In this document: one piece after another, positions 15,665 to 25,854 of the stretch | How the letters are laid out: each line of letters opens with the position of its first letter | Position numbering within the stretch: the first letter of the stretch is position 1 | Assembly (NCBI GenBank): GCA_031375155.1 | Contig: JANMHM010000012.1 | Span: forward strand, 2,343 to 66,342 | Length of the DNA: 64,000 nucleotides | Reading direction: 5' to 3' | Source: Candidatus Altimarinota bacterium | Lineage (GTDB): Bacteria > Patescibacteriota > Gracilibacteria > BD1-5 > UBA2023 | Notes under the pieces: model-generated | Databases searched by the model: none | The model's input: the letters and a program-made list of their open reading frames with translations, nothing else | What the model was told of the DNA's origin: nothing | Translations under genes and position numbers: made by a program

Positions 15665-15801
15665 ATAATTAATTTTAAAATTAAAATGTATACTTAGACT
15701 ACCACTCTCTCTCTCTCTTGTCAAATTTCTCCGTACTTTCCTTTGCATTTTCTCATTTTTTCCCTAGAATACGCGAGAATTTCTATTTTATTCTACTCAC
15801 T

Positions 15802-17121
15802 ATGATCGCTAATATCCAAAAAGTCTGGGCAACAGAACATATCCGCAAGAAGATACTCTTCACGCTCGGTATCGTTATCGTCTATAAGCTCCTCGCGACT
15901 ATCCCTGTTCCATGAGTCAATATCGCTCTTCTCGATGCTTTTACTGAGCAACTCCGGGCCAATACTCAGCTCGCGTTTTTCGGCTCTATTATGGGAGGTG
16001 GACTCGAGCAATTCTCCATCATTCTCATGGGTCTAGCACCGTATATCAATGCGACTATCATCATCCAGCTTCTTACTGTGATCATCCCTTCACTTGAGGC
16101 ACTGAAAAAAGAAGGTGAACAAGGACAGAAAAAAATCAATAACTATACTCGCTATCTCACCGTCCCTCTCGCTCTCGCTCAGAGCTATGGTATGATCTAC
16201 CTTCTCAATACTATCATCGGTACAGGAGAAGCTGGAGCGAGTATCATCGATACGACGAACTTCATGGGAGTCGTACTTCCAGCTATGCTCGCGATCACTG
16301 CAGGTACTATGGTACTTCTCTGGCTCGGTGATCTCATCACAGAGTCTGGTATAGGAAATGGGAGCTCGATCATCATCTTCGCCTGAGTCCTCGCAGGAGT
16401 GCCACAGCATATCTTGAATTATATCAGTACACAAAACTATGGACTCCTTCTCGTGCTGGCTATCCTTACGATAGCAGTGATATTTATCATCGTGAAGTTC
16501 ACAGAAGGATATCGTAAAGTGCCACTTATCTATACTCGTACAGGACGTGATGAGCGATCCTACTTTCCTATCCGAGTCAATCAAGCGGGTATGGTGCCGA
16601 TCATCTTCGCGGTCTCTCTCATAACATTCCCTTCACTGATCGGGCAGATCCTCGCGAAACGTGGTACTGGTATGAGTGCTACAGTGGGTGAGTGGCTCGC
16701 GACCAATCTCTCTATGCAAAATCCTGGATGGGTATATATCGCAGTCTACGCTCTTCTAGTTCTTGGATTTGCATTTTTCTATGTATCTATCACGTTCAAC
16801 ACGACTGAAGTCGCAGAAAATATCCAGAAACGCGGAGGATATATCCCAGGAGTACGTCCAGGAAAGGAAACAGCCACGTACTTACAGAAAGTCTCTGACA
16901 GACTCAACCTTTTCTGAGGAGGGTTTCTCGCACTTATCGCAGTATTTCCCTATCTCGCGACCAAGCTTGCTCCGATACTCGGATTTCCCTCTCTCGGAGC
17001 GACACAGATCGACTTCCTGATCTCTGGTGCTGGACTGATCATCGTCGTCGGAGTGATCCTCGATATTATCCGTCGTATCGATACAGATATGAAGAGTTTT
17101 GATTATAAGAAATTCCACTAA
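15802..17121 (+). CDS. secY: Preprotein translocase subunit SecY
   Basis: ATG 15802 (MIANIQKVW). Four ORF-track fragments lie in one frame, joined by TGA, ending at TAA 17119. Confidence 0.95.
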
Positions 17122-17267: not shown

Positions 17268-17867
17268 ATGAAAATCTGCGTGTGGGATACAGAGACTACA
17301 GGATTCGCGACAAAATGAGGAGACCTCGCTCGACAGCCATATATCATCCAGTTTGCAGCGATCGAGTGAGAACTCGAGGGTGATGTATATCGTGAGATCG
17401 CACGTCACGATATCATGATCAAGCCATTTATATCGATCCCTTTCTGAGCTTCCCAAGTCAATGGTATCTATGATAAAGATGTCGCTGACTGTGAACCGAT
17501 GAATGTACATATAGATACCATACTACGTATACTCAATAATGCTGATCTCGTCTCAGGGCATAATATCGAATATGATGAAGATATCCTCTCCTACGAGCTC
17601 GCAAGACTCGGAAAAAGTGGAGAGTACTCTCCACAGAAGACGGTCTGTACTATGAGATCATCGACAGATTACTGTAAGCTCCAAGGGAGAGGATTTGCCT
17701 ATAAGCCGCCGAAACTTTCCGAGCTTCACAAACATCTTTTTTGAGAGTTTTTCGAATGAGCTCATGATGCTCTCATCGATGTAGAGGCGACTATGCGATG
17801 CTTCGTCGAGCTTGTCCGTAGATGAGTGATCGTCCCAGAGACATCGAATGTGATGCGATTGTTCTAG
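17268..17867 (+). CDS. DEDDh 3'-5' exonuclease (DnaQ/epsilon-like)
   Basis: Exo motifs VWDTETTG, GHNIEYDEDIL and HDALIDVEAT. Several in-frame TGA. TAG at 17865. Confidence 0.75.
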
Positions 17868-18997
17868 GAAAATTCTTCTATAATTCCACTTCCTATGACG
17901 ACGTCTTTATCGTAGATCACGCAGATCTGTCCTGGACTAATCGCGCGTTGGGGAACTGTAAACTGTAAACTGTAAATTATAGATTCAGCACCATTATCAT
18001 TTATAATTCATCATTTATAATTCATCATTACTTCCTGATCCTCCTGACGATACCGTATTTTCGCTCCATATCTTTTTCCTTCTTCTGGTAGAGTTCCTAC
18101 CCAATCTGTGAGAGTGCATTCACTTCCATAAAGCTCGAGCTCGTTCTCATTTCCTACGGTGATAGTGTTATTTTTCACATCCTTCGCTATTACGAAGAGT
18201 GCTGGTCATCATCCTACTTGTATACCCTTTCTTTGCCCGATAGTATAGGAATAGGCTCACTCGTGTTCCCCGATGACTATTCCAGATGTATCGAGGATGT
18301 TTCCTAGTTTTTTCGGGATCCTACGTTCGAGAAATTCTTTCATGCTCACTTTTCCGATAAAGCAGAGTCACTGTGAGTCTTTTCTTTCTGCATTGGGCAG
18401 TCATGCTTTTTTTGCTATGGCTCTGACTTCTGACTTGAGGAGGTGCCCTATCGGGAAGAGCGCATGTGAGATCTGGAATGGGGATAGTCGCGAGAGAAAG
18501 TATGATTGGTCTTTGTTTGGATCGACTCACTTCAGAAGTTGTATTTTTCTGTCATTTCGAGCTTGCGAGAAATCTTGCTCATGTATTCAGAGCAGGATGT
18601 CTCCTTTGTCGACATGACAGGTACGAGCATAGTGACCCATCGCGATACCATCATATCCGAGCGAGAGTGCTTCCTCGAGGAAGAGATCGAATTTTACGAG
18701 ATTGTTACAGAAAACGTCAGGATTGGGCGTCCTTCCCGCCTCATATTCACTATAGATGTATTCGATGATGCGTTTCTCATACTCTTCTCGATAATCGAAG
18801 GTGTAGAGAGGAAGATCGAGGTACTTTGCGACTTTTTTTGCCTCTTCGAGGTCTGCGAGCGTCGGACATGATTGTGGAAATTCCTCATCGAGATAATTGA
18901 TCATGAATCCACACGTCACTTCATGCCCATCTTGCTTGAGAAGATAGGCTGATACGGCAGAGTCTACTCATCATGAGAGTCATACGAGGATTTTCAT
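17864..18997 (-). CDS. mnmA: tRNA-specific 2-thiouridylase MnmA
   Basis: MKILVGLS-GG-VDSAV, with the PP-loop written TGA-TGA. Motifs [18 protein letters not shown] and [10 protein letters not shown]. One frame from 18997 down to TAG at 17864. Confidence 0.9.
18549..18578. repeat. Hairpin repeat unit CTGTCATTTCGA...GAGAAATCTTGC inside the mnmA coding frame
   Basis: Both 12-nt ends are identical to the intergenic copy at 173-216. It is translated as part of ...[19 protein letters not shown]... Confidence 0.6.
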
Positions 18998-18999
18998 AG

Positions 19000-19629
19000 T
19001 TATTTTTGGAGTGAGGCTATTATTTCTTCCCAATCCTTTACCCGATAAAGAAGTGGATGTTCGAAGTGTTCATTCCTATTCCAGGGCTTTTCCAGAAGTA
19101 TACAGGCGATACCATGTTCTATGAGATCGAGAGCATTTTCTATATGGTCATCGATCATCATACTGATCCCGAAACTTTTACAGATATCTGATTTTGGCCT
19201 CGCATCTTTCGAGAAATGATTCACGAAATATACATTTTTTATCGTAGGAAGGTGTGTATGAACCCAATGTATGGTACGAGGTTTTTTCCAATCTTGGTCA
19301 TCAGATCGAGCCGTGATAATAGACAGTTCTATCCCTCGTTTTTCGAGAAGTTGTACTCCATTCTTTGCGTTTTGCATGAGGGGGATACTCTGTGGATCGA
19401 GAGTTTTTTGCCCATAGGATTCCCAGACGAAACTGCTATCAGCTTCCGTGAGGGTCGGATCGAGCCCGAGAAAATCATACTTGGTGATATCTTCGAGAGA
19501 TCTGATACCGAGAAGCTTTCCGTGCGAGTGAGCCTCATCGAGCATCCCCATGACTGTACTCGCGAGCGTCTCATCGAGATCGAGACCGATATGGTTATGT
19601 TGTGCCCAGTCGAGGCGTGTGAGAGACAT
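19000..19629 (-). CDS. HAD-superfamily 5'(3')-nucleotidase-like hydrolase
   Basis: DLDETL (DxDxT) motif. The start could be 19629 or 19692. The rest of ORF 19000-19995 is antisense to fur and was rejected. Confidence 0.55.
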   Translation of the reverse strand: MSLTRLDWAQHNHIGLDLDETLASTVMGMLDEAHSHGKLLGIRSLEDITKYDFLGLDPTLTEADSSFVWESYGQKTLDPQSIPLMQNAKNGVQLLEKRGIELSIITARSDDQDWKKPRTIHWVHTHLPTIKNVYFVNHFSKDARPKSDICKSFGISMMIDDHIENALDLIEHGIACILLEKPWNRNEHFEHPLLYRVKDWEEIIASLQK

Positions 19630-19676
19630 GCCGAGAGTATAGGGAAAAATAAGAGAAAGTAAAAAAATTGATTTCC

Positions 19677-19691
19677 TGAGATTTTTTCTCA
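19677..19691. promoter_or_regulatory. TGAGA-N5-TCTCA palindrome upstream of fur
   Basis: TGAGATTTTTTCTCA, 11 nt before the fur ATG. Confidence 0.45.
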
Positions 19692-19701
19692 TAATACGTT
19701 C

Positions 19702-20040
19702 ATGCGCAAACACCAGTATCGAGACATCATCTGTTCTACTTGTGAGTGCCGGCATCTCTCCGCTGAGGATATCTATGAAGAAGTGAAACGAAAAAGTCCA
19801 GATATCGGGCGCGCGACGGTATACCGCAATATCGAAGCCATGGCAGAAGAGGGTATGCTCAGGCGATTTCCAGGAATCCACGGGAAGACCTACTACGAGT
19901 GCAACCCTGCGACTCACGCTCACCTCGTCGATGAGGCAACAGGGATTTTCTGTGATTTCCCGATCGAGAATGTTTCTATACGAGAACTCCCACAAGGCTA
20001 CAAAATATCAGAAATCCGTATCCAGATAACCCGCGAATAA
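19702..20040 (+). CDS. fur: Fur-family (Fur/PerR-like) transcriptional regulator
   Basis: 112-aa ORF with wHTH ...GRATVYRNIEAMAEEGMLRR. Its neighbours are oxidative-stress genes. Confidence 0.7.
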   Translation: MRKHQYRDIICSTCECRHLSAEDIYEEVKRKSPDIGRATVYRNIEAMAEEGMLRRFPGIHGKTYYECNPATHAHLVDEATGIFCDFPIENVSIRELPQGYKISEIRIQITRE

Positions 20041-20041
20041 C

Positions 20042-20773
20042 ATGCGACACGCTCTCGAGATCCATCACCTTACCAAAAAAATCTGAAAGGCGATATTGCT
20101 CCAAGATATTCACTTCTTTCTCGCGAAGGGGGAAGTGTTTTGATTTCTCGGGCCCAATGGCGCTGGAAAGACCACCACGATGAAGTGTATCCTCGGTATC
20201 ATGCGACCGACATCAGGCGAAGTCAAAATTCTCTGAGGTTCTATCGATGATGCAAATATTCGCAATAAGTTAGGATTCATGCCAGAGAATACGTATCTCT
20301 ACAAGTACCTCACAGGAGATGAGTTTCTCGACTTCAATGCTTCCTTCTACCATCTCACATGAGAAAAACTCGAAAAGAGAAAGACCGAGGTTCTCGAAAA
20401 AGTCGGACTCACTCATGCTCGTGGGAAACGACTCCAGACCTACTCCAAGGGGATGCTCCAGCGTATCGGACTTGCTCAAGCGATCCTGCATGATCCAGAG
20501 GTTGTATTCCTGGATGAGCCTATGAGTGGGCTCGACCCTGTCGGTCGCAAGATGGTGAAAGACCTCATGCTGGAACTGAAGTCTCAGGGAAAAACCCTAT
20601 TTTTCAATACCCATATCCTCTCTGATGTCGAGGCGATCTGTGACCGATTTGCTATCATATCCCGCGGAGTCATCGTAGCCAATATGAGAGTATCAGAACT
20701 CGATAAGCCTATAGAAGACTTCTTCATGGAACGTATCATGAGTCATCAAGGAGAGGATTTCCGAGGAGAATAG
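20042..20773 (+). CDS. ABC transporter ATP-binding protein
   Basis: ATG lies 1 nt after the fur stop. Walker [10 protein letters not shown], signature YSKGMLQR, Walker B VVFLDEP. 4 in-frame TGA. Confidence 0.85.
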
Positions 20774-20788
20774 TGAGAACTATTCTCA
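20774..20788. promoter_or_regulatory. TGAGAACTATTCTCA operator-like palindrome upstream of dps
   Basis: Exact reverse complement of the site at 21349. TTGATT follows 7 nt downstream. Confidence 0.55.
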
Positions 20789-20894
20789 TTTAGACTTGAT
20801 TTTCTCAGTAAAATGGAAATACTGTCTTTATTATTTCTTTGTGATTTTTGCTAAAATCTATAAAAATACTACCTACCCCTAACCCCCTATTTCT

Positions 20895-21335
20895 ATGAAT
20901 ACCAAAAATCCTTCGCTCGATGTGCTGAATCATCTCATCGCTGCCTATACTATCGCTTCGCAAAATGCTCGATTTTGTCACTGGAATGTCGTCGGTCCTC
21001 ACTTCGAAGATGATCATGAGCTCTTCGGGGAACTCTATGATGAGCTCTCAGAAGAGGTAGATCTCTTTGCTGAGCGTATCCGTGCACTCAGGCTCAATCC
21101 ACTTTCTCGACTCGTCGATCTTCTCGCAGAAACCAAACTCCAGGAATACGAACTTCCTATGACGGCTCGTCAGATGCAGAAAAATATGCTCAAAGACTAC
21201 GAACATATCTCAGCTGAGATGACAAAATTCATCCAAGAGACAGATCATGATGCTGTGACCCAGGATATCATCACGGGTTCTCAGAGACAGATCGATAAGC
21301 GTGCCTGGATGATGCGGTCGATGCTCGGAGAATAA
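20895..21335 (+). CDS. dps: Dps-family DNA-protection/ferritin-like protein
   Basis: 146-aa ORF with ...HWNVVGPHFEDDHELFGELYDEL... Confidence 0.8.
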   Translation: MNTKNPSLDVLNHLIAAYTIASQNARFCHWNVVGPHFEDDHELFGELYDELSEEVDLFAERIRALRLNPLSRLVDLLAETKLQEYELPMTARQMQKNMLKDYEHISAEMTKFIQETDHDAVTQDIITGSQRQIDKRAWMMRSMLGE

Positions 21336-21348
21336 GAAATAGTTATTA

Positions 21349-21363
21349 TGAGAATAGTTCTCA
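21349..21363. promoter_or_regulatory. TGAGAATAGTTCTCA operator-like palindrome upstream of ahpC
   Basis: Palindrome 7 nt upstream of the -35 TTGATT. Confidence 0.55.
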
Positions 21364-21370
21364 TTTTGAT

Positions 21371-21398
21371 TTGATTTTACATTAGATTTTCATATACT
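21371..21398 (+). promoter_or_regulatory. Sigma70-like promoter (TTGATT-16-TATACT)
   Basis: TTGATT at 21371-21376 and TATACT at 21393-21398. Confidence 0.5.
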
Positions 21399-21418: not shown

Positions 21419-21567
21419 TTTTGTCATTTCGTAGTGACCCGTCCTCCGCAGAAGCCCTGCTTCGGAGGATGGAAACGGAGAAATCCCTTTTAAAGTCATC
21501 TTATAAGAAATATATAAAAATATCTCTTGAGAGAAAAATATAGGGATGCCTACGGCATGACAAAATG
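21419..21567. mobile_element. 149-bp MITE-like element in the ahpC 5' UTR
   Basis: Terminal inverted repeats TTTTGTCATTTCGTAG (21419) and CTACGGCATGACAAAA (21552-21567). 14 of 16 positions match after reverse-complementing. Confidence 0.55.
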
Positions 21568-21639
21568 GTACCTGCCCAATAACTAATTACTATTTTCTAA
21601 TCTACTACTTTTATGTCTTGCTGACACGACCACGAATAC

Positions 21640-22233
21640 ATGTTCGAACAGGTAAAAATCGATACTCCTGCACCAAATTTCGACCTTCCTGCCTATGACC
21701 CGGTGAAAGATGACACTACCAATGTCTCTCTCGCTGATCAGAAAGGGAAGTGGACAGTACTCTTCTACTATCCTGCTGACTTCACTTTCGTCTGTCCGAC
21801 AGAACTCAAGGATATGGCAGATGCGAAGGCAGAGTTCGACGCACTCGCAGTCGATGTCCTCGCGGTCTCGACTGATACCGTCTTCTCTCATCGTGCATGG
21901 GTGAAGCACGAGGGGCTTATGAAAAATTTCCCATACCTCATGCTCGCGGATCATAGTACAGAGGTCGCCGACTCGTATAATATCCTCGACGAGAAGTCTG
22001 GGATCGCTGGACGAGGAACATTTATCATCGATCCTGAGGGAGTCTGCCGTGGTATCGAAGTGACCTCTGGTCCACTCGGCCGCAATAGTGAAGAGCTCCT
22101 TCGCAAGATCGAAGCCCTCCAGTTCATGACGGCTCATCCTGGGACTGCATGTCCTGCGAAGTGGAAAGCTGGTGCGAAGACCCTTACTCCATCGATCAAG
22201 ATCGCGGGGGAGGTCGAAGGACAACTACGGTAG
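21640..22233 (+). CDS. ahpC: 2-Cys peroxiredoxin (AhpC/Prx1 type)
   Basis: FTFVCPTE peroxidatic motif and a C-terminal ACPAKW. Confidence 0.9.
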   Translation: MFEQVKIDTPAPNFDLPAYDPVKDDTTNVSLADQKGKWTVLFYYPADFTFVCPTELKDMADAKAEFDALAVDVLAVSTDTVFSHRAWVKHEGLMKNFPYLMLADHSTEVADSYNILDEKSGIAGRGTFIIDPEGVCRGIEVTSGPLGRNSEELLRKIEALQFMTAHPGTACPAKWKAGAKTLTPSIKIAGEVEGQLR

Positions 22234-23207: not shown

Positions 23208-23245
23208 AAAAACCTCCTGAAGCTTCAGGGGGTTTTTGTTTTTTG
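23208..23245. terminator. Rho-independent terminator
   Basis: AAAAACCTCCTGAAGCTTCAGGGGGTTTTTGTTTTTT. Confidence 0.7.
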
Positions 23246-23397
23246 ACATTTCCCGACTTTTCTATACTATCTCCTCACATTTTCGTATGAGTTCTTACGA
23301 GCTCTCGTATTTCTTATTGTCGAAATACGAGATTTTCGCGAAGTGAGAAAGCCAAGAACGTTATGACTTCGAAGCCCTCATATATAACCCCTTTTCC

Positions 23398-25854
23398 ATG
23401 ACTCCTCCAGCAAATCAAGATGACTACTACGCTCAGGTAAAAGCCGCAGGTGCATCTGGTACCGATGATAAAAAACCACTCAAACTCAAGCTCAAGGCTG
23501 TCGTGAAAAAACCGATAGAAGAAGAAATTCCACAAAAAGAGGAAGATATTTCCCCGCGTGAAGTCGTACAAGAGGAACGTCCGAAAGCACGTCTCGTGGA
23601 GCGTGAGCATGCGAGCTCTGGACTCATGCGAAGCGTGATGAAAGGAGGTGATGATAAAAAATGAGACCAGAGAGATAGTCGAGAGAGAAGTACATTTCCG
23701 AAGATATCTTTCGCGAAAGCAGAACACAAGGTAAAAATCCTCGAAAATCGTCCTGTCATGCAAATTCCGGATGAAGTCCCGAAGAGGCGCACTGACGGAA
23801 CTGCTCCAGTCGGTGCAGGAGCAAAACGTCTTCGCGATGACTCGAAGCCAATGTTCCAGAGAAATATCGCCTTTGCAACACCGCAGAAAGATGGTACCGC
23901 GAAAAAATGAGGAAAATGAAAGTGAGGAAAGGACTATGTCATGGAAGATGGAAAGAGAAAAAGTGTGAAGACGATCGGAGGAGTGGCAGACGATGGATCA
24001 TTTCGCCGATCAGGAAAACTCGGAAAGAAAAAGTGAGAAAAAAATATCGAAGATCTCAAACAAATTCTCGTCGACCGTACGGGACAAGAGGTCTCTGTCG
24101 GTGATGTGATATCCGTGAAAGAGTTCTCAGATAAGATCGGTATACCAGCGGTGAAGGTGATCGGAGAGCTCATGAAAAACGGAGTCCTCGTCAATCTCAA
24201 TGCTCCTATCGACTATGATACGTGTTTCCTTATCGGAGAAGCATTTGGTATCAAGATCACCAAAGAAATCTCAGAAAATGCATCAGTATCAGACCTCATG
24301 GATGGGAACATCGACGAGATGATAAAAGAAGAAGATAGCTCCCGCCTCGTCTCTCGCTCACCGATCATCTCCGTCATGGGACACGTCGACCATGGAAAGA
24401 CCTCGATCCTCGACTACATCCGGAAGGCATCGGTCGTATCAGGAGAAGCATGAGGTATCACTCAGAAGATCGGAGCGTATCAGGTCGAGAAAAATGGAGG
24501 GAAGATCACCTTTCTCGATACTCCAGGACATGAGGCCTTCACTATCATGCGAGCTCGCGGAGCCAAACTCACAGATATTGCTGTCATCGTCATCGCCGCA
24601 GACGAGGGGATGAAACCACAGACCATAGAGTCGATCAACCACGCGAAAGCTGCAGAAGTCCCGATGATCATCGCGATCAATAAGATGGACAAGCCAGGAG
24701 CTAATATCGACCTCATCAAATGACAAATGGCAGAGCAAGGACTCCAGCCAGAAGATTGGGGAGGCAATACCGTCGTCGTACCTGTCTCAGCGCATACAGG
24801 ACTCGGTATGGACTCTCTCCTCGAGATGATCCTCCTCCAGGCTGAGATGCTCGAACTGCGAGCCAATCCTGACCGTGGTGCTATCGCAACGGTCGTCGAA
24901 GCGCATCTCGATCAGAAGCTCGGATCGGTCGCTACTATCCTAATCAACACGGGAACTATTCGCAAAACAGACAACATCGTCTGTGCAGGAGCATATGGAA
25001 AAGTCCGTACACTGAAAGACTACAAGGGGAAAAATATCGACTCAGCAGGTCCAGGAGTACCAGTGCAGATCACGGGTCTCTCTGATGTCGTCCAGGGTGG
25101 AGATATCCTCCAGGTCCTCTCGACTCCAGAGCTCGCGACGACTCGTGCGAAGGAGTACTCTCTCGCGAAAAATAAAAAATCGATCCACGCCTTCGAATGA
25201 GCCTCTCTCGGTATGCTCATGAGTCGACTGAAGTCTGGAGCCCTCAAACAGCTCAAGATCGTCCTCAAGACGGATACCGGAGGATCACTCGAAGCGCTCA
25301 AGGCTTCTCTCACGAAGCTCTCGACTCCTGAGACACAAGTCGTGTTTATCCACTCGGCAGTCGGAGATGTGAACCAGTCTGATGTCATGATGGCAGGGAC
25401 TTCACAGGCGCTCCTCATCGCGTACAATGTCGGAGTCAATCCTGCTGCGAAGTCAGCACTGTCTCAGTCGAAAATAGAATTTATCGATAAAAAAGTCATC
25501 TATCACGTCATCGAGAAAGTCGAATCTATCATCACCGGTATGATCGACATCCGCTACGAAGACCTCGAGCTCGGTGCGTCTCTCGTGAAAGCGATCTTCT
25601 TCACTGGCAAGAACAACTCTATGATGATCGTCGGTATGGGAGTCACTTCAGGAAAGATCGAGAACCGAGCAAAAGTCCGTGTCATCCGCGCAGGGTCCAA
25701 GGTCGGAAGTGGTGAAGTCGTGAATCTGAAGATGGGTCCACTCGATGTGAACGAAGTCGAAGAAGGAAATGACTGTGGTATCAACTTCAAGGGAGACGTG
25801 CAGATCATGGAAGGTGATGTGCTCGAGTTCTATAAGATGGTACAGAGGAAATAG
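23398..25854 (+). CDS. infB: Translation initiation factor IF-2
   Basis: Fragments 23398, 24106, 24727 and 25213 are all in one frame joined by TGA. Motifs [25 protein letters not shown] and NKMD. Confidence 0.95.

Follow-up and report, generated by a model that had tools for sequence, protein, structure and literature searches.

What joins a small Fur-family gene to the neighboring genes for a Dps-like ferritin and a 2-Cys peroxiredoxin in an uncultivated gracilibacterium, and is the palindrome that recurs before all three the operator of the Fur-family protein? The locus lies in a 64,000-nucleotide stretch of contig JANMHM010000012.1 (hereafter the window, to which all coordinates without a contig or locus name refer), whose source, G000, is a 1.24-Mb Candidatus Gracilibacteria metagenome-assembled genome (MAG) in 59 contigs with 91% completeness. 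An earlier note on the window had proposed a PerR-like peroxide regulon in which one operator, TGAGA-N5-TCTCA, serves the Fur-family gene together with dps and ahpC. This proposal is supported, and extended, by further genes preceded by the box, by its conservation across genera and by a box abundance that tracks the regulator. The reading we favor, with a probability of roughly 0.65, is that the inverted repeat TGAGAAT-N-ATTCTCA serves as the operator of the 112-amino-acid Fur-family protein encoded at 19702..20040 on the plus strand, which would be a PerR-like metal-dependent repressor; from the sequences we infer its binding, the repression and peroxide as the signal.

The proposed operator and its genomic distribution

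The three 15-mers that had been placed at 19677..19691, 20774..20788 and 21349..21363 are all present there. The first (Box 1, TGAGATTTTTTCTCA; 19677..19691) has two mismatches to the refined consensus given below and lies in the −35/−10 spacer of the regulator's promoter, its end 10 nucleotides (nt) from the regulator's ATG; it is a predicted autoregulatory site. Box 2 (TGAGAACTATTCTCA; 20774..20788), with one mismatch, abuts the stop codon that closes the gene for an ABC ATPase, lies 106 nt before dps, and ends 7 nt before the TTGATT (20796-20801) of the dps promoter. Box 3 (TGAGAATAGTTCTCA; 21349..21363), likewise with one mismatch, is the exact reverse complement of Box 2, as had been claimed, and ends 7 nt before the −35 element of ahpC; the claim of a block shared by dps and ahpC holds as well, with exactly 7 nt from the end of the box to the TTGATT in each copy. 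Within the 64-kb window the pattern TGAGA-N5-TCTCA has three matches against 0.27 expected, and 0 of 100 shuffles reached three.

At the scale of the genome, the scan that the note had recommended separates two forms of this pattern. The loose TGAGA-N5-TCTCA is near chance, with 12 matches against 8.4 ± 2.4 in the third-order Markov simulations from which all expected genomic site counts were derived. Its matches fall into two clear sets, namely AT-centered promoter sites and GC-centered sites within open reading frames (ORFs); four matches that lie in ORFs and have GC-rich centers were dropped. The functional unit that emerges from the whole-genome scan is instead the 7-1-7 inverted repeat TGAGAAT-N-ATTCTCA, which has the architecture of a Fur-family operator and is enriched, with two perfect and five one-mismatch sites in 1.24 Mb against 0 and 1.1 expected. 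All seven sites with at most one mismatch are intergenic, though about 92% of the genome is coding, and a frequency matrix of 36 conserved sites yields atAATGAGAATnATTCTCATTat. Hence, of the operator as first proposed, the three copies in the window are real, and its definition as TGAGA-N5-TCTCA gives way to the 7-1-7 unit. Sites with two mismatches are at noise level in G000 (24 against 18.6 expected) and were discarded, other than those before sufC and the regulator's own gene, which we retained because relatives conserve them. Indeed, it is the conserved position of the site in relatives that leads us to accept Box 1 as real: the core of the own-gene promoter and box is conserved in 15 relatives, and within the genus the site is weaker and fixed in position, with the core TTGATTTT-yTGAGAnTTTTTCTCATAAT kept and the flanks variable. 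Perfect boxes precede the regulator gene itself in the related genomes G023 and G035.

The suggestion that the operator may be specific to the lineage and differ from the textbook boxes is not supported. The half-site TGAGAAT is one position off TGATAAT, the half-site of Bacillus subtilis Fur, and some relatives have TGATAAT...ATTATCA at equivalent sites, alternating with TGAGAAT. The operator is a classical Fur-family 7-1-7 repeat, and we do not consider it lineage-specific since the same 15-mers (TGAGAATGATTCTCA, TGAGAACGATTCTCA and TGATAACGATTCTCA) are Fur boxes of Enterococcus faecalis (PMC6056675).

An ortholog of the 112-residue regulator is encoded in 20 of 41 related genomes, the orthologs coming from Candidatus Gracilibacteria MAGs, and the box follows it: genomes with the ortholog have a mean of 6.4 boxes against 1.29 in those without it (Mann-Whitney p = 2e-7; p = 4.5e-4 with the window's own genus left out), and a control with the reversed pattern gave 0.24 boxes per genome. 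We examined the DNA around every box in six ortholog-bearing genomes (G003, G018, G019, G023, G035 and G037), in which the conservation of box and spacing that the note had wished to see checked was borne out: the same box-gene pairs recur, and the 7-nt gap between box and −35 element is kept in several genera. Among the recurring pairs, that with ahpC is found in six genomes, those with gdh and trxB in five each, those with trxA, malic enzyme and dps in three each, and that with an aminopeptidase-like gene in two. The box stands before ahpC in G003, G018, G023, G035 and G037, before dps in G003 and between dps and ahpC in G018. Moreover, G035 and G037 belong to another family and their regulators share just 29-32% identity with that of the window, yet they display the same box-gene pairs.

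These distributions also bear on whether the box might be read by another factor, be it a Fur paralog or an unrelated protein, its adjacency to the regulator gene being incidental. Such a reader could be imagined given that G000 has three Fur-family genes in all and that its own-gene site is only a two-mismatch one. However, the other two Fur-family genes (contig C36:17500-20500, loci L011 and L012), one of which encodes a CxxC motif, are neighbors of a ZIP transporter and a pair of COG0523/CobW GTPases in a cluster of zinc type, and upstream they have palindromes of their own (TTTGCA-N6-TGCAAA and GCAAA-N2-TTTGC), which are of a TGCAAA type and are a likely Zur-type operator. Furthermore, the box counts track the 112-residue regulator specifically: in G018, G035 and G037, where it is the sole Fur-family protein, 4-7 boxes are kept, and ten genomes with other Fur genes and no ortholog have 0-3 boxes, which is the background level. 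In a class-level sample of more distant genomes, the only box in each of G053, G052 and G165, both boxes in G060 and one of two in G102 lie about 40-115 nt upstream of a Fur-family gene homologous to the regulator's; one of the six boxes in G168 is likewise upstream of the regulator gene of that genome, 65 nt away. As the 7-1-7 architecture is itself typical of the Fur family, we consider another reader very improbable.

The predicted regulon

The seven strong sites precede dps, ahpC, trxA (a thioredoxin with a WCGPC motif), trxB (thioredoxin reductase), gdh (glutamate dehydrogenase) and the genes for a malic enzyme and an aminopeptidase-like protein, and a conserved weaker variant, TAAGAATCATTCTCx, precedes sufC. 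From the positions of the boxes and their conservation, a peroxide-defense regulon with autoregulation is predicted, in which the boxed genes constitute a coherent and complete detoxification chain. In the mechanism that we propose, a dimer loaded with Fe(II) or Mn(II) would bind the 7-1-7 box and repress at all box sites, until peroxide oxidizes the His/Asp metal site; the oxidized protein would dissociate from the DNA, which would lift the repression of the regulon. Electrons would then pass from TrxB via TrxA to the peroxiredoxin AhpC, with NAD(P)H plausibly supplied by the malic enzyme and Gdh (and by Gnd in one relative), and Dps would sequester iron while Suf would repair Fe-S clusters. 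There is no AhpF-like gene among the boxed genes or adjoining ahpC, and as the genome itself was not searched for one, we only infer the dependence of the peroxiredoxin on thioredoxin.

In B. subtilis, the PerR regulon comprises mrgA/dps, ahpCF, katA, perR and fur, and the PerR half-site is TTATAAT. The system described here parallels it in its Fur-family regulator, its 7-1-7 operator and a regulon in which ahpC and the gene for the regulator itself are joined by one for a Dps-type protein; it differs in its half-site, TGAGAAT, in the addition of trxA, trxB, suf and the NAD(P)H-supplying dehydrogenases, and in having no catalase or heme genes.

Relatives add lineage-specific boxed genes: superoxide dismutase (SOD) in G003, 6-phosphogluconate dehydrogenase (gnd) in G037 and a small Dps-like protein in G035 and G037. 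The first two were considered as regulon members in G000 and rejected, their boxes being found in G003 and G037 and not in G000. The small Dps-like gene, coding for 116 amino acids, is preceded in G037 (locus L044, 1801-1873) by two perfect TGAGAATAATTCTCA boxes that are 58 nt apart from start to start, and a perfect box is likewise found at its G035 homolog.

Some features of the less familiar boxed genes may be recorded here. The aminopeptidase-like protein (contig C55; locus L004, 1044-2381) has no Pfam match and its homologs are named aminopeptidase by the Joint Genome Institute; it has 446 residues against 385-390 in most of about 1,700 homologs, the G000 copy having about 55 additional low-complexity residues. 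The box-bearing intergenic region before the malic enzyme gene is shared with the gene for a 245-residue protein (C57:9776-10513, minus strand; locus L005, 1880-2614), which has no Pfam or NCBIfam match and is transcribed divergently from the malic enzyme gene.

The regulator: a Fur-family core with PerR-like and Fur-like residues

The regulator matches the Pfam FUR family (PF01475) over residues 15-109 with 66.4 bits against a cut-off of 23.1 (E = 3.3e-18). Its AlphaFold2 model (predicted local distance difference test score 78.2; predicted template-modeling score 0.63) shows the Fur fold, with a winged-helix DNA-binding domain and, after it, an alpha/beta dimerization domain; in a Foldseek comparison with the PDB all 47 of the 47 matches with E ≤ 0.001 are Fur-family chains. 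In sequence, the best PDB match is 5NL9, the PerR of Leptospira interrogans (E = 1.9e-10). We aligned the regulator to B. subtilis PerR (BsPerR), using a B. subtilis sequence checked against the known residue numbers; the alignment is gapless over the metal site and pairs H18 with H37, E66 with D85, H72 with H91, H74 with H93 and D85 with D104. Thus, four of the metal-site residues are identical and one Asp is replaced by Glu, and all five are invariant in 19 orthologs.

Two positions have been reported as signatures that distinguish PerR from Fur: Asp at position 104 of PerR confers sensitivity to H2O2, with Glu as its Fur counterpart, and Asn61, with Arg as its Fur counterpart, selects the type of box (PMC8638851). 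At the first of these the regulator has an invariant Asp (D85) and not Glu. At the N61/R61 position of the recognition helix it has an invariant Arg (R42), and the PerR-type Asn is absent; this Fur-type Arg42 fits the DNA because the half-site begins with TG, as in the Fur box.

The protein is also a pared-down member of its family, without the N-terminal helix 1 and the C-terminal tail. The Cys4 zinc site is missing, with C96 and C99 replaced by D77 and T80 and the protein ending before the second CxxC, and a CxxC motif is found in 0 of 19 orthologs. In these respects it departs from BsPerR, which has the zinc site, the first helix and the tail in its 145 residues against 112 here. There is a precedent in the Leptospira PerR/PerRA (5NL9), which also has no structural Cys4 metal site (PMC8638851) and has the Asp at the position for H2O2 sensitivity; that protein, however, keeps the canonical Asn (N60) in place of the Arg seen here and is about 35 residues longer, and the NCBIfam PerRA and PerRB models give our regulator about 47 bits against cut-offs of 200-250.

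Promoters and box geometry

Promoter scans and the box positions resolve three arrangements. In geometry A, 7-9 nt separate the end of the box from the −35 element that follows it (ahpC, dps, trxA, malic enzyme and gdh). The promoter of ahpC (21371..21398, plus strand; TTGATT, 16-nt spacer, TATACT) exemplifies it, with the same arrangement of promoter and box in G003, G018 and G023. In geometry B, seen at trxB, the box adjoins a TATAAT −10 element 15-45 nt before the start codon and is predicted to cover the transcription start. In geometry C the box lies in the −35/−10 spacer, 3 nt past the −35 element, and overlaps the −10 element, whose first two bases are the last two of the box. This is the arrangement at the regulator's own gene (promoter 19668..19695, plus strand; TTGATT, 16-nt spacer, CATAAT) and at sufC, with the ATG 6 nt past the −10 element; given this short distance, the regulator transcript may be leaderless. 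The own-gene promoter geometry is found at sufC both in G000 (C5:25560-25610) and in G023, which suggests a leaderless sufC transcript too. When the spacers of the geometry-A promoters were checked by eye for a second weak box, a perR-like GAGATTTTTC stretch was seen in the trxA promoters and not in that of ahpC; we make no claim on it.

The positions of the box in geometries B and C are those typical of a repressor, and it is on this account that we take the protein to repress at every one of its sites. One could conceive of a dual mode of action set by the position of the box, with repression at trxB, sufC and the own gene, and activation or contact with RNA polymerase at ahpC, dps, malic enzyme and gdh. 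The 7-nt gap between box and −35 element, kept at many promoters in several genera, would be in line with this, as would the control of both signs by box position that has been proposed for Irr and its boxes (PMC1698941). However, the targets belong to one defense pathway whose joint induction is to be expected, and opposite signs at trxB and ahpC would make little sense. Moreover, the footprints of Fur-family proteins are longer than the 15-mer and could reach the −35 element or block an upstream element. We therefore regard a dual mode as improbable.

Peroxide or metal as the signal

Several observations weigh against a PerR-like peroxide repressor. The Foldseek comparison is unable to tell PerR from Fur, Mur or Zur. 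Two signature positions, with Arg for Asn61 and Glu for Asp85 of BsPerR, are Fur-like. The top NCBIfam matches are all below threshold and are led by Irr and IrrA (NF045677 and NF045678; 58.4 and 55.7 bits against cut-offs of 170 and 150), with PerRB and PerRA after them (the PerRA, PerRB and PerR equivalogs gave 33-48 bits against cut-offs of 180-250). The box is identical to the E. faecalis Fur boxes. Box 1 taken alone, a two-mismatch site, is at the noise level of its class. The genes sod and gnd are boxed only in some relatives and not in G000. Lastly, a geometry-A box, centered near −50, is in no obvious position for steric repression.

Some of these points would be accommodated if the signal were a metal, iron or manganese, as it is for Fur, Mur and Irr, with Dps, Suf and the antioxidants tied to iron status. 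Irr is a Fur-family protein without the Cys4 site, and such a scheme would take in the Fur-type Arg of the recognition helix, the Glu at the D85 position of BsPerR, the lead of Irr and IrrA among the NCBIfam matches and the relation of dps and suf to iron. The boxes of the alpha-proteobacterial Irr (ICE; TTTAGAA-N3-TTCTAAA) share the core AGAA-N3-TTCT with the box described here, and both iron storage genes and Fe-S genes are among those that Irr controls (PMC1698941). Irr, however, senses heme and iron, the outer positions of its box differ, and no heme-related gene is boxed here. As for Fur proper, the Arg in the recognition helix and a TGATAAT-type box are found, and boxes before iron-uptake genes are not: the operators of E. 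faecalis Fur, identical in sequence to those here, are iron-responsive and precede the iron-uptake operons feoAB, fhu and ycl (PMC6056675), whereas the targets here are antioxidant genes. No iron-uptake gene is among the boxed genes, and no true FeoB was found in G000, in which the search returned only short GTPase-domain matches of at most 45 bits. Further, the core of the regulon (ahpC, trxA, trxB and the NAD(P)H suppliers) is one of peroxide defense; sensitivity to H2O2 has been attributed to an Asp at the D104 position, and that Asp is invariant here; the ZIP and COG0523 metal transport genes adjoin the other two Fur paralogs; and repression of Dps under plentiful iron would be counter-productive. 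Hence, a metal signal appears rather unlikely, and a PerR-like response to peroxide remains our preferred interpretation.

Within this interpretation, a more tentative picture can be drawn of a natural Fur/PerR hybrid: a core of 110-115 residues without helix 1 or zinc site, which might recognize a Fur-type box via Arg42 and respond to peroxide via Asp85. It might be the sole peroxide regulator of these candidate phyla radiation bacteria (no LysR/OxyR-type helix-turn-helix protein was found in G000), and might at most targets act from a site at a rigid distance of 7 nt before the −35 element, perhaps by a non-steric route, be it activation or keeping out the alpha subunit of the polymerase.

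Neither this box nor any PerR/Fur regulon of Gracilibacteria or Absconditabacteria was described in the literature that our searches returned. The control system is of a familiar kind and would little surprise a specialist, each of its unusual traits having a precedent: Leptospira has a PerR without the Cys4 site, and Enterococcus a TGAGAAT box. It is mildly interesting that a protein of 112 residues should combine the reading head of a Fur with the regulon of a PerR. The regulon opens an uncultivated, recoded lineage to tests and suggests how its small host-dependent cells might cope with oxygen: one switch would govern a thioredoxin-dependent peroxiredoxin chain together with the NAD(P)H that feeds it, Dps and Suf. 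The regulator also represents a natural test of the published rules on Arg/Asn61 for the choice of box and Asp/Glu104 for sensitivity to peroxide, and its gene should be directly expressible in E. coli because it has no TGA codon.

Gene order and neighboring features

Genes beyond the window were called with scripts for code-25 ORFs together with BLAST and Pfam. That genetic code 25 applies, which the note had not recognized, follows from secY (15718-17121), mnmA (17864-19033), the ABC ATPase gene (20042-20773) and infB (23236-25854), which have in-frame TGA codons and are unbroken only if TGA is read as Gly. Lists of ORFs in the standard code split the code-25 genes and give long antisense shadow ORFs. 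Under code 25 the order at the locus is a 5′-nucleotidase-like gene on the minus strand, the Fur-family gene, the ABC ATPase gene, dps and ahpC.

The ABC transporter ATPase (20042..20773, plus strand; 243 residues) has four TGA codons for Gly, one of them in the Walker A motif. Its start lies only 1 nt past the stop codon of the regulator gene, on which ground the two genes are probably co-transcribed; their neighborhood is also kept in G003 and G023. The dps gene (20895..21335, plus strand) codes for a 146-residue Dps/ferritin-like protein with matches to Pfam Ferritin (3.3e-20) and NCBIfam Dps (5.5e-20, below the curated cut-off), and ahpC (21613..22233, plus strand) for a 206-residue 2-Cys peroxiredoxin with matches to Pfam AhpC-TSA (9.6e-38) and NCBIfam AhpC (1.3e-61, also below the curated cut-off). 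The start of ahpC under code 25 is at 21613, with one TGA codon for Gly, at position 4. Before its peroxiredoxin domain, AhpC has an N-terminal extension that is cysteine-rich and conserved, reading MSCC in G003, G018 and G037 and MSC-TGA(Gly)-H in G000 (21613-21640).

With about 249 nt, the ahpC leader of G000 is longer than its counterparts, which have 82 nt in G003 and G018 and 34-92 nt elsewhere. It contains a repeat-like insertion of about 149 bp (21419..21567) with terminal inverted repeats and an internal hairpin, which separates the promoter and operator of ahpC from the start codon and is not part of the operator. The 3′ 20-25 nt of this insertion are found again on four other contigs (C58, C4, C32 and C38), and G023 carries a related insertion.

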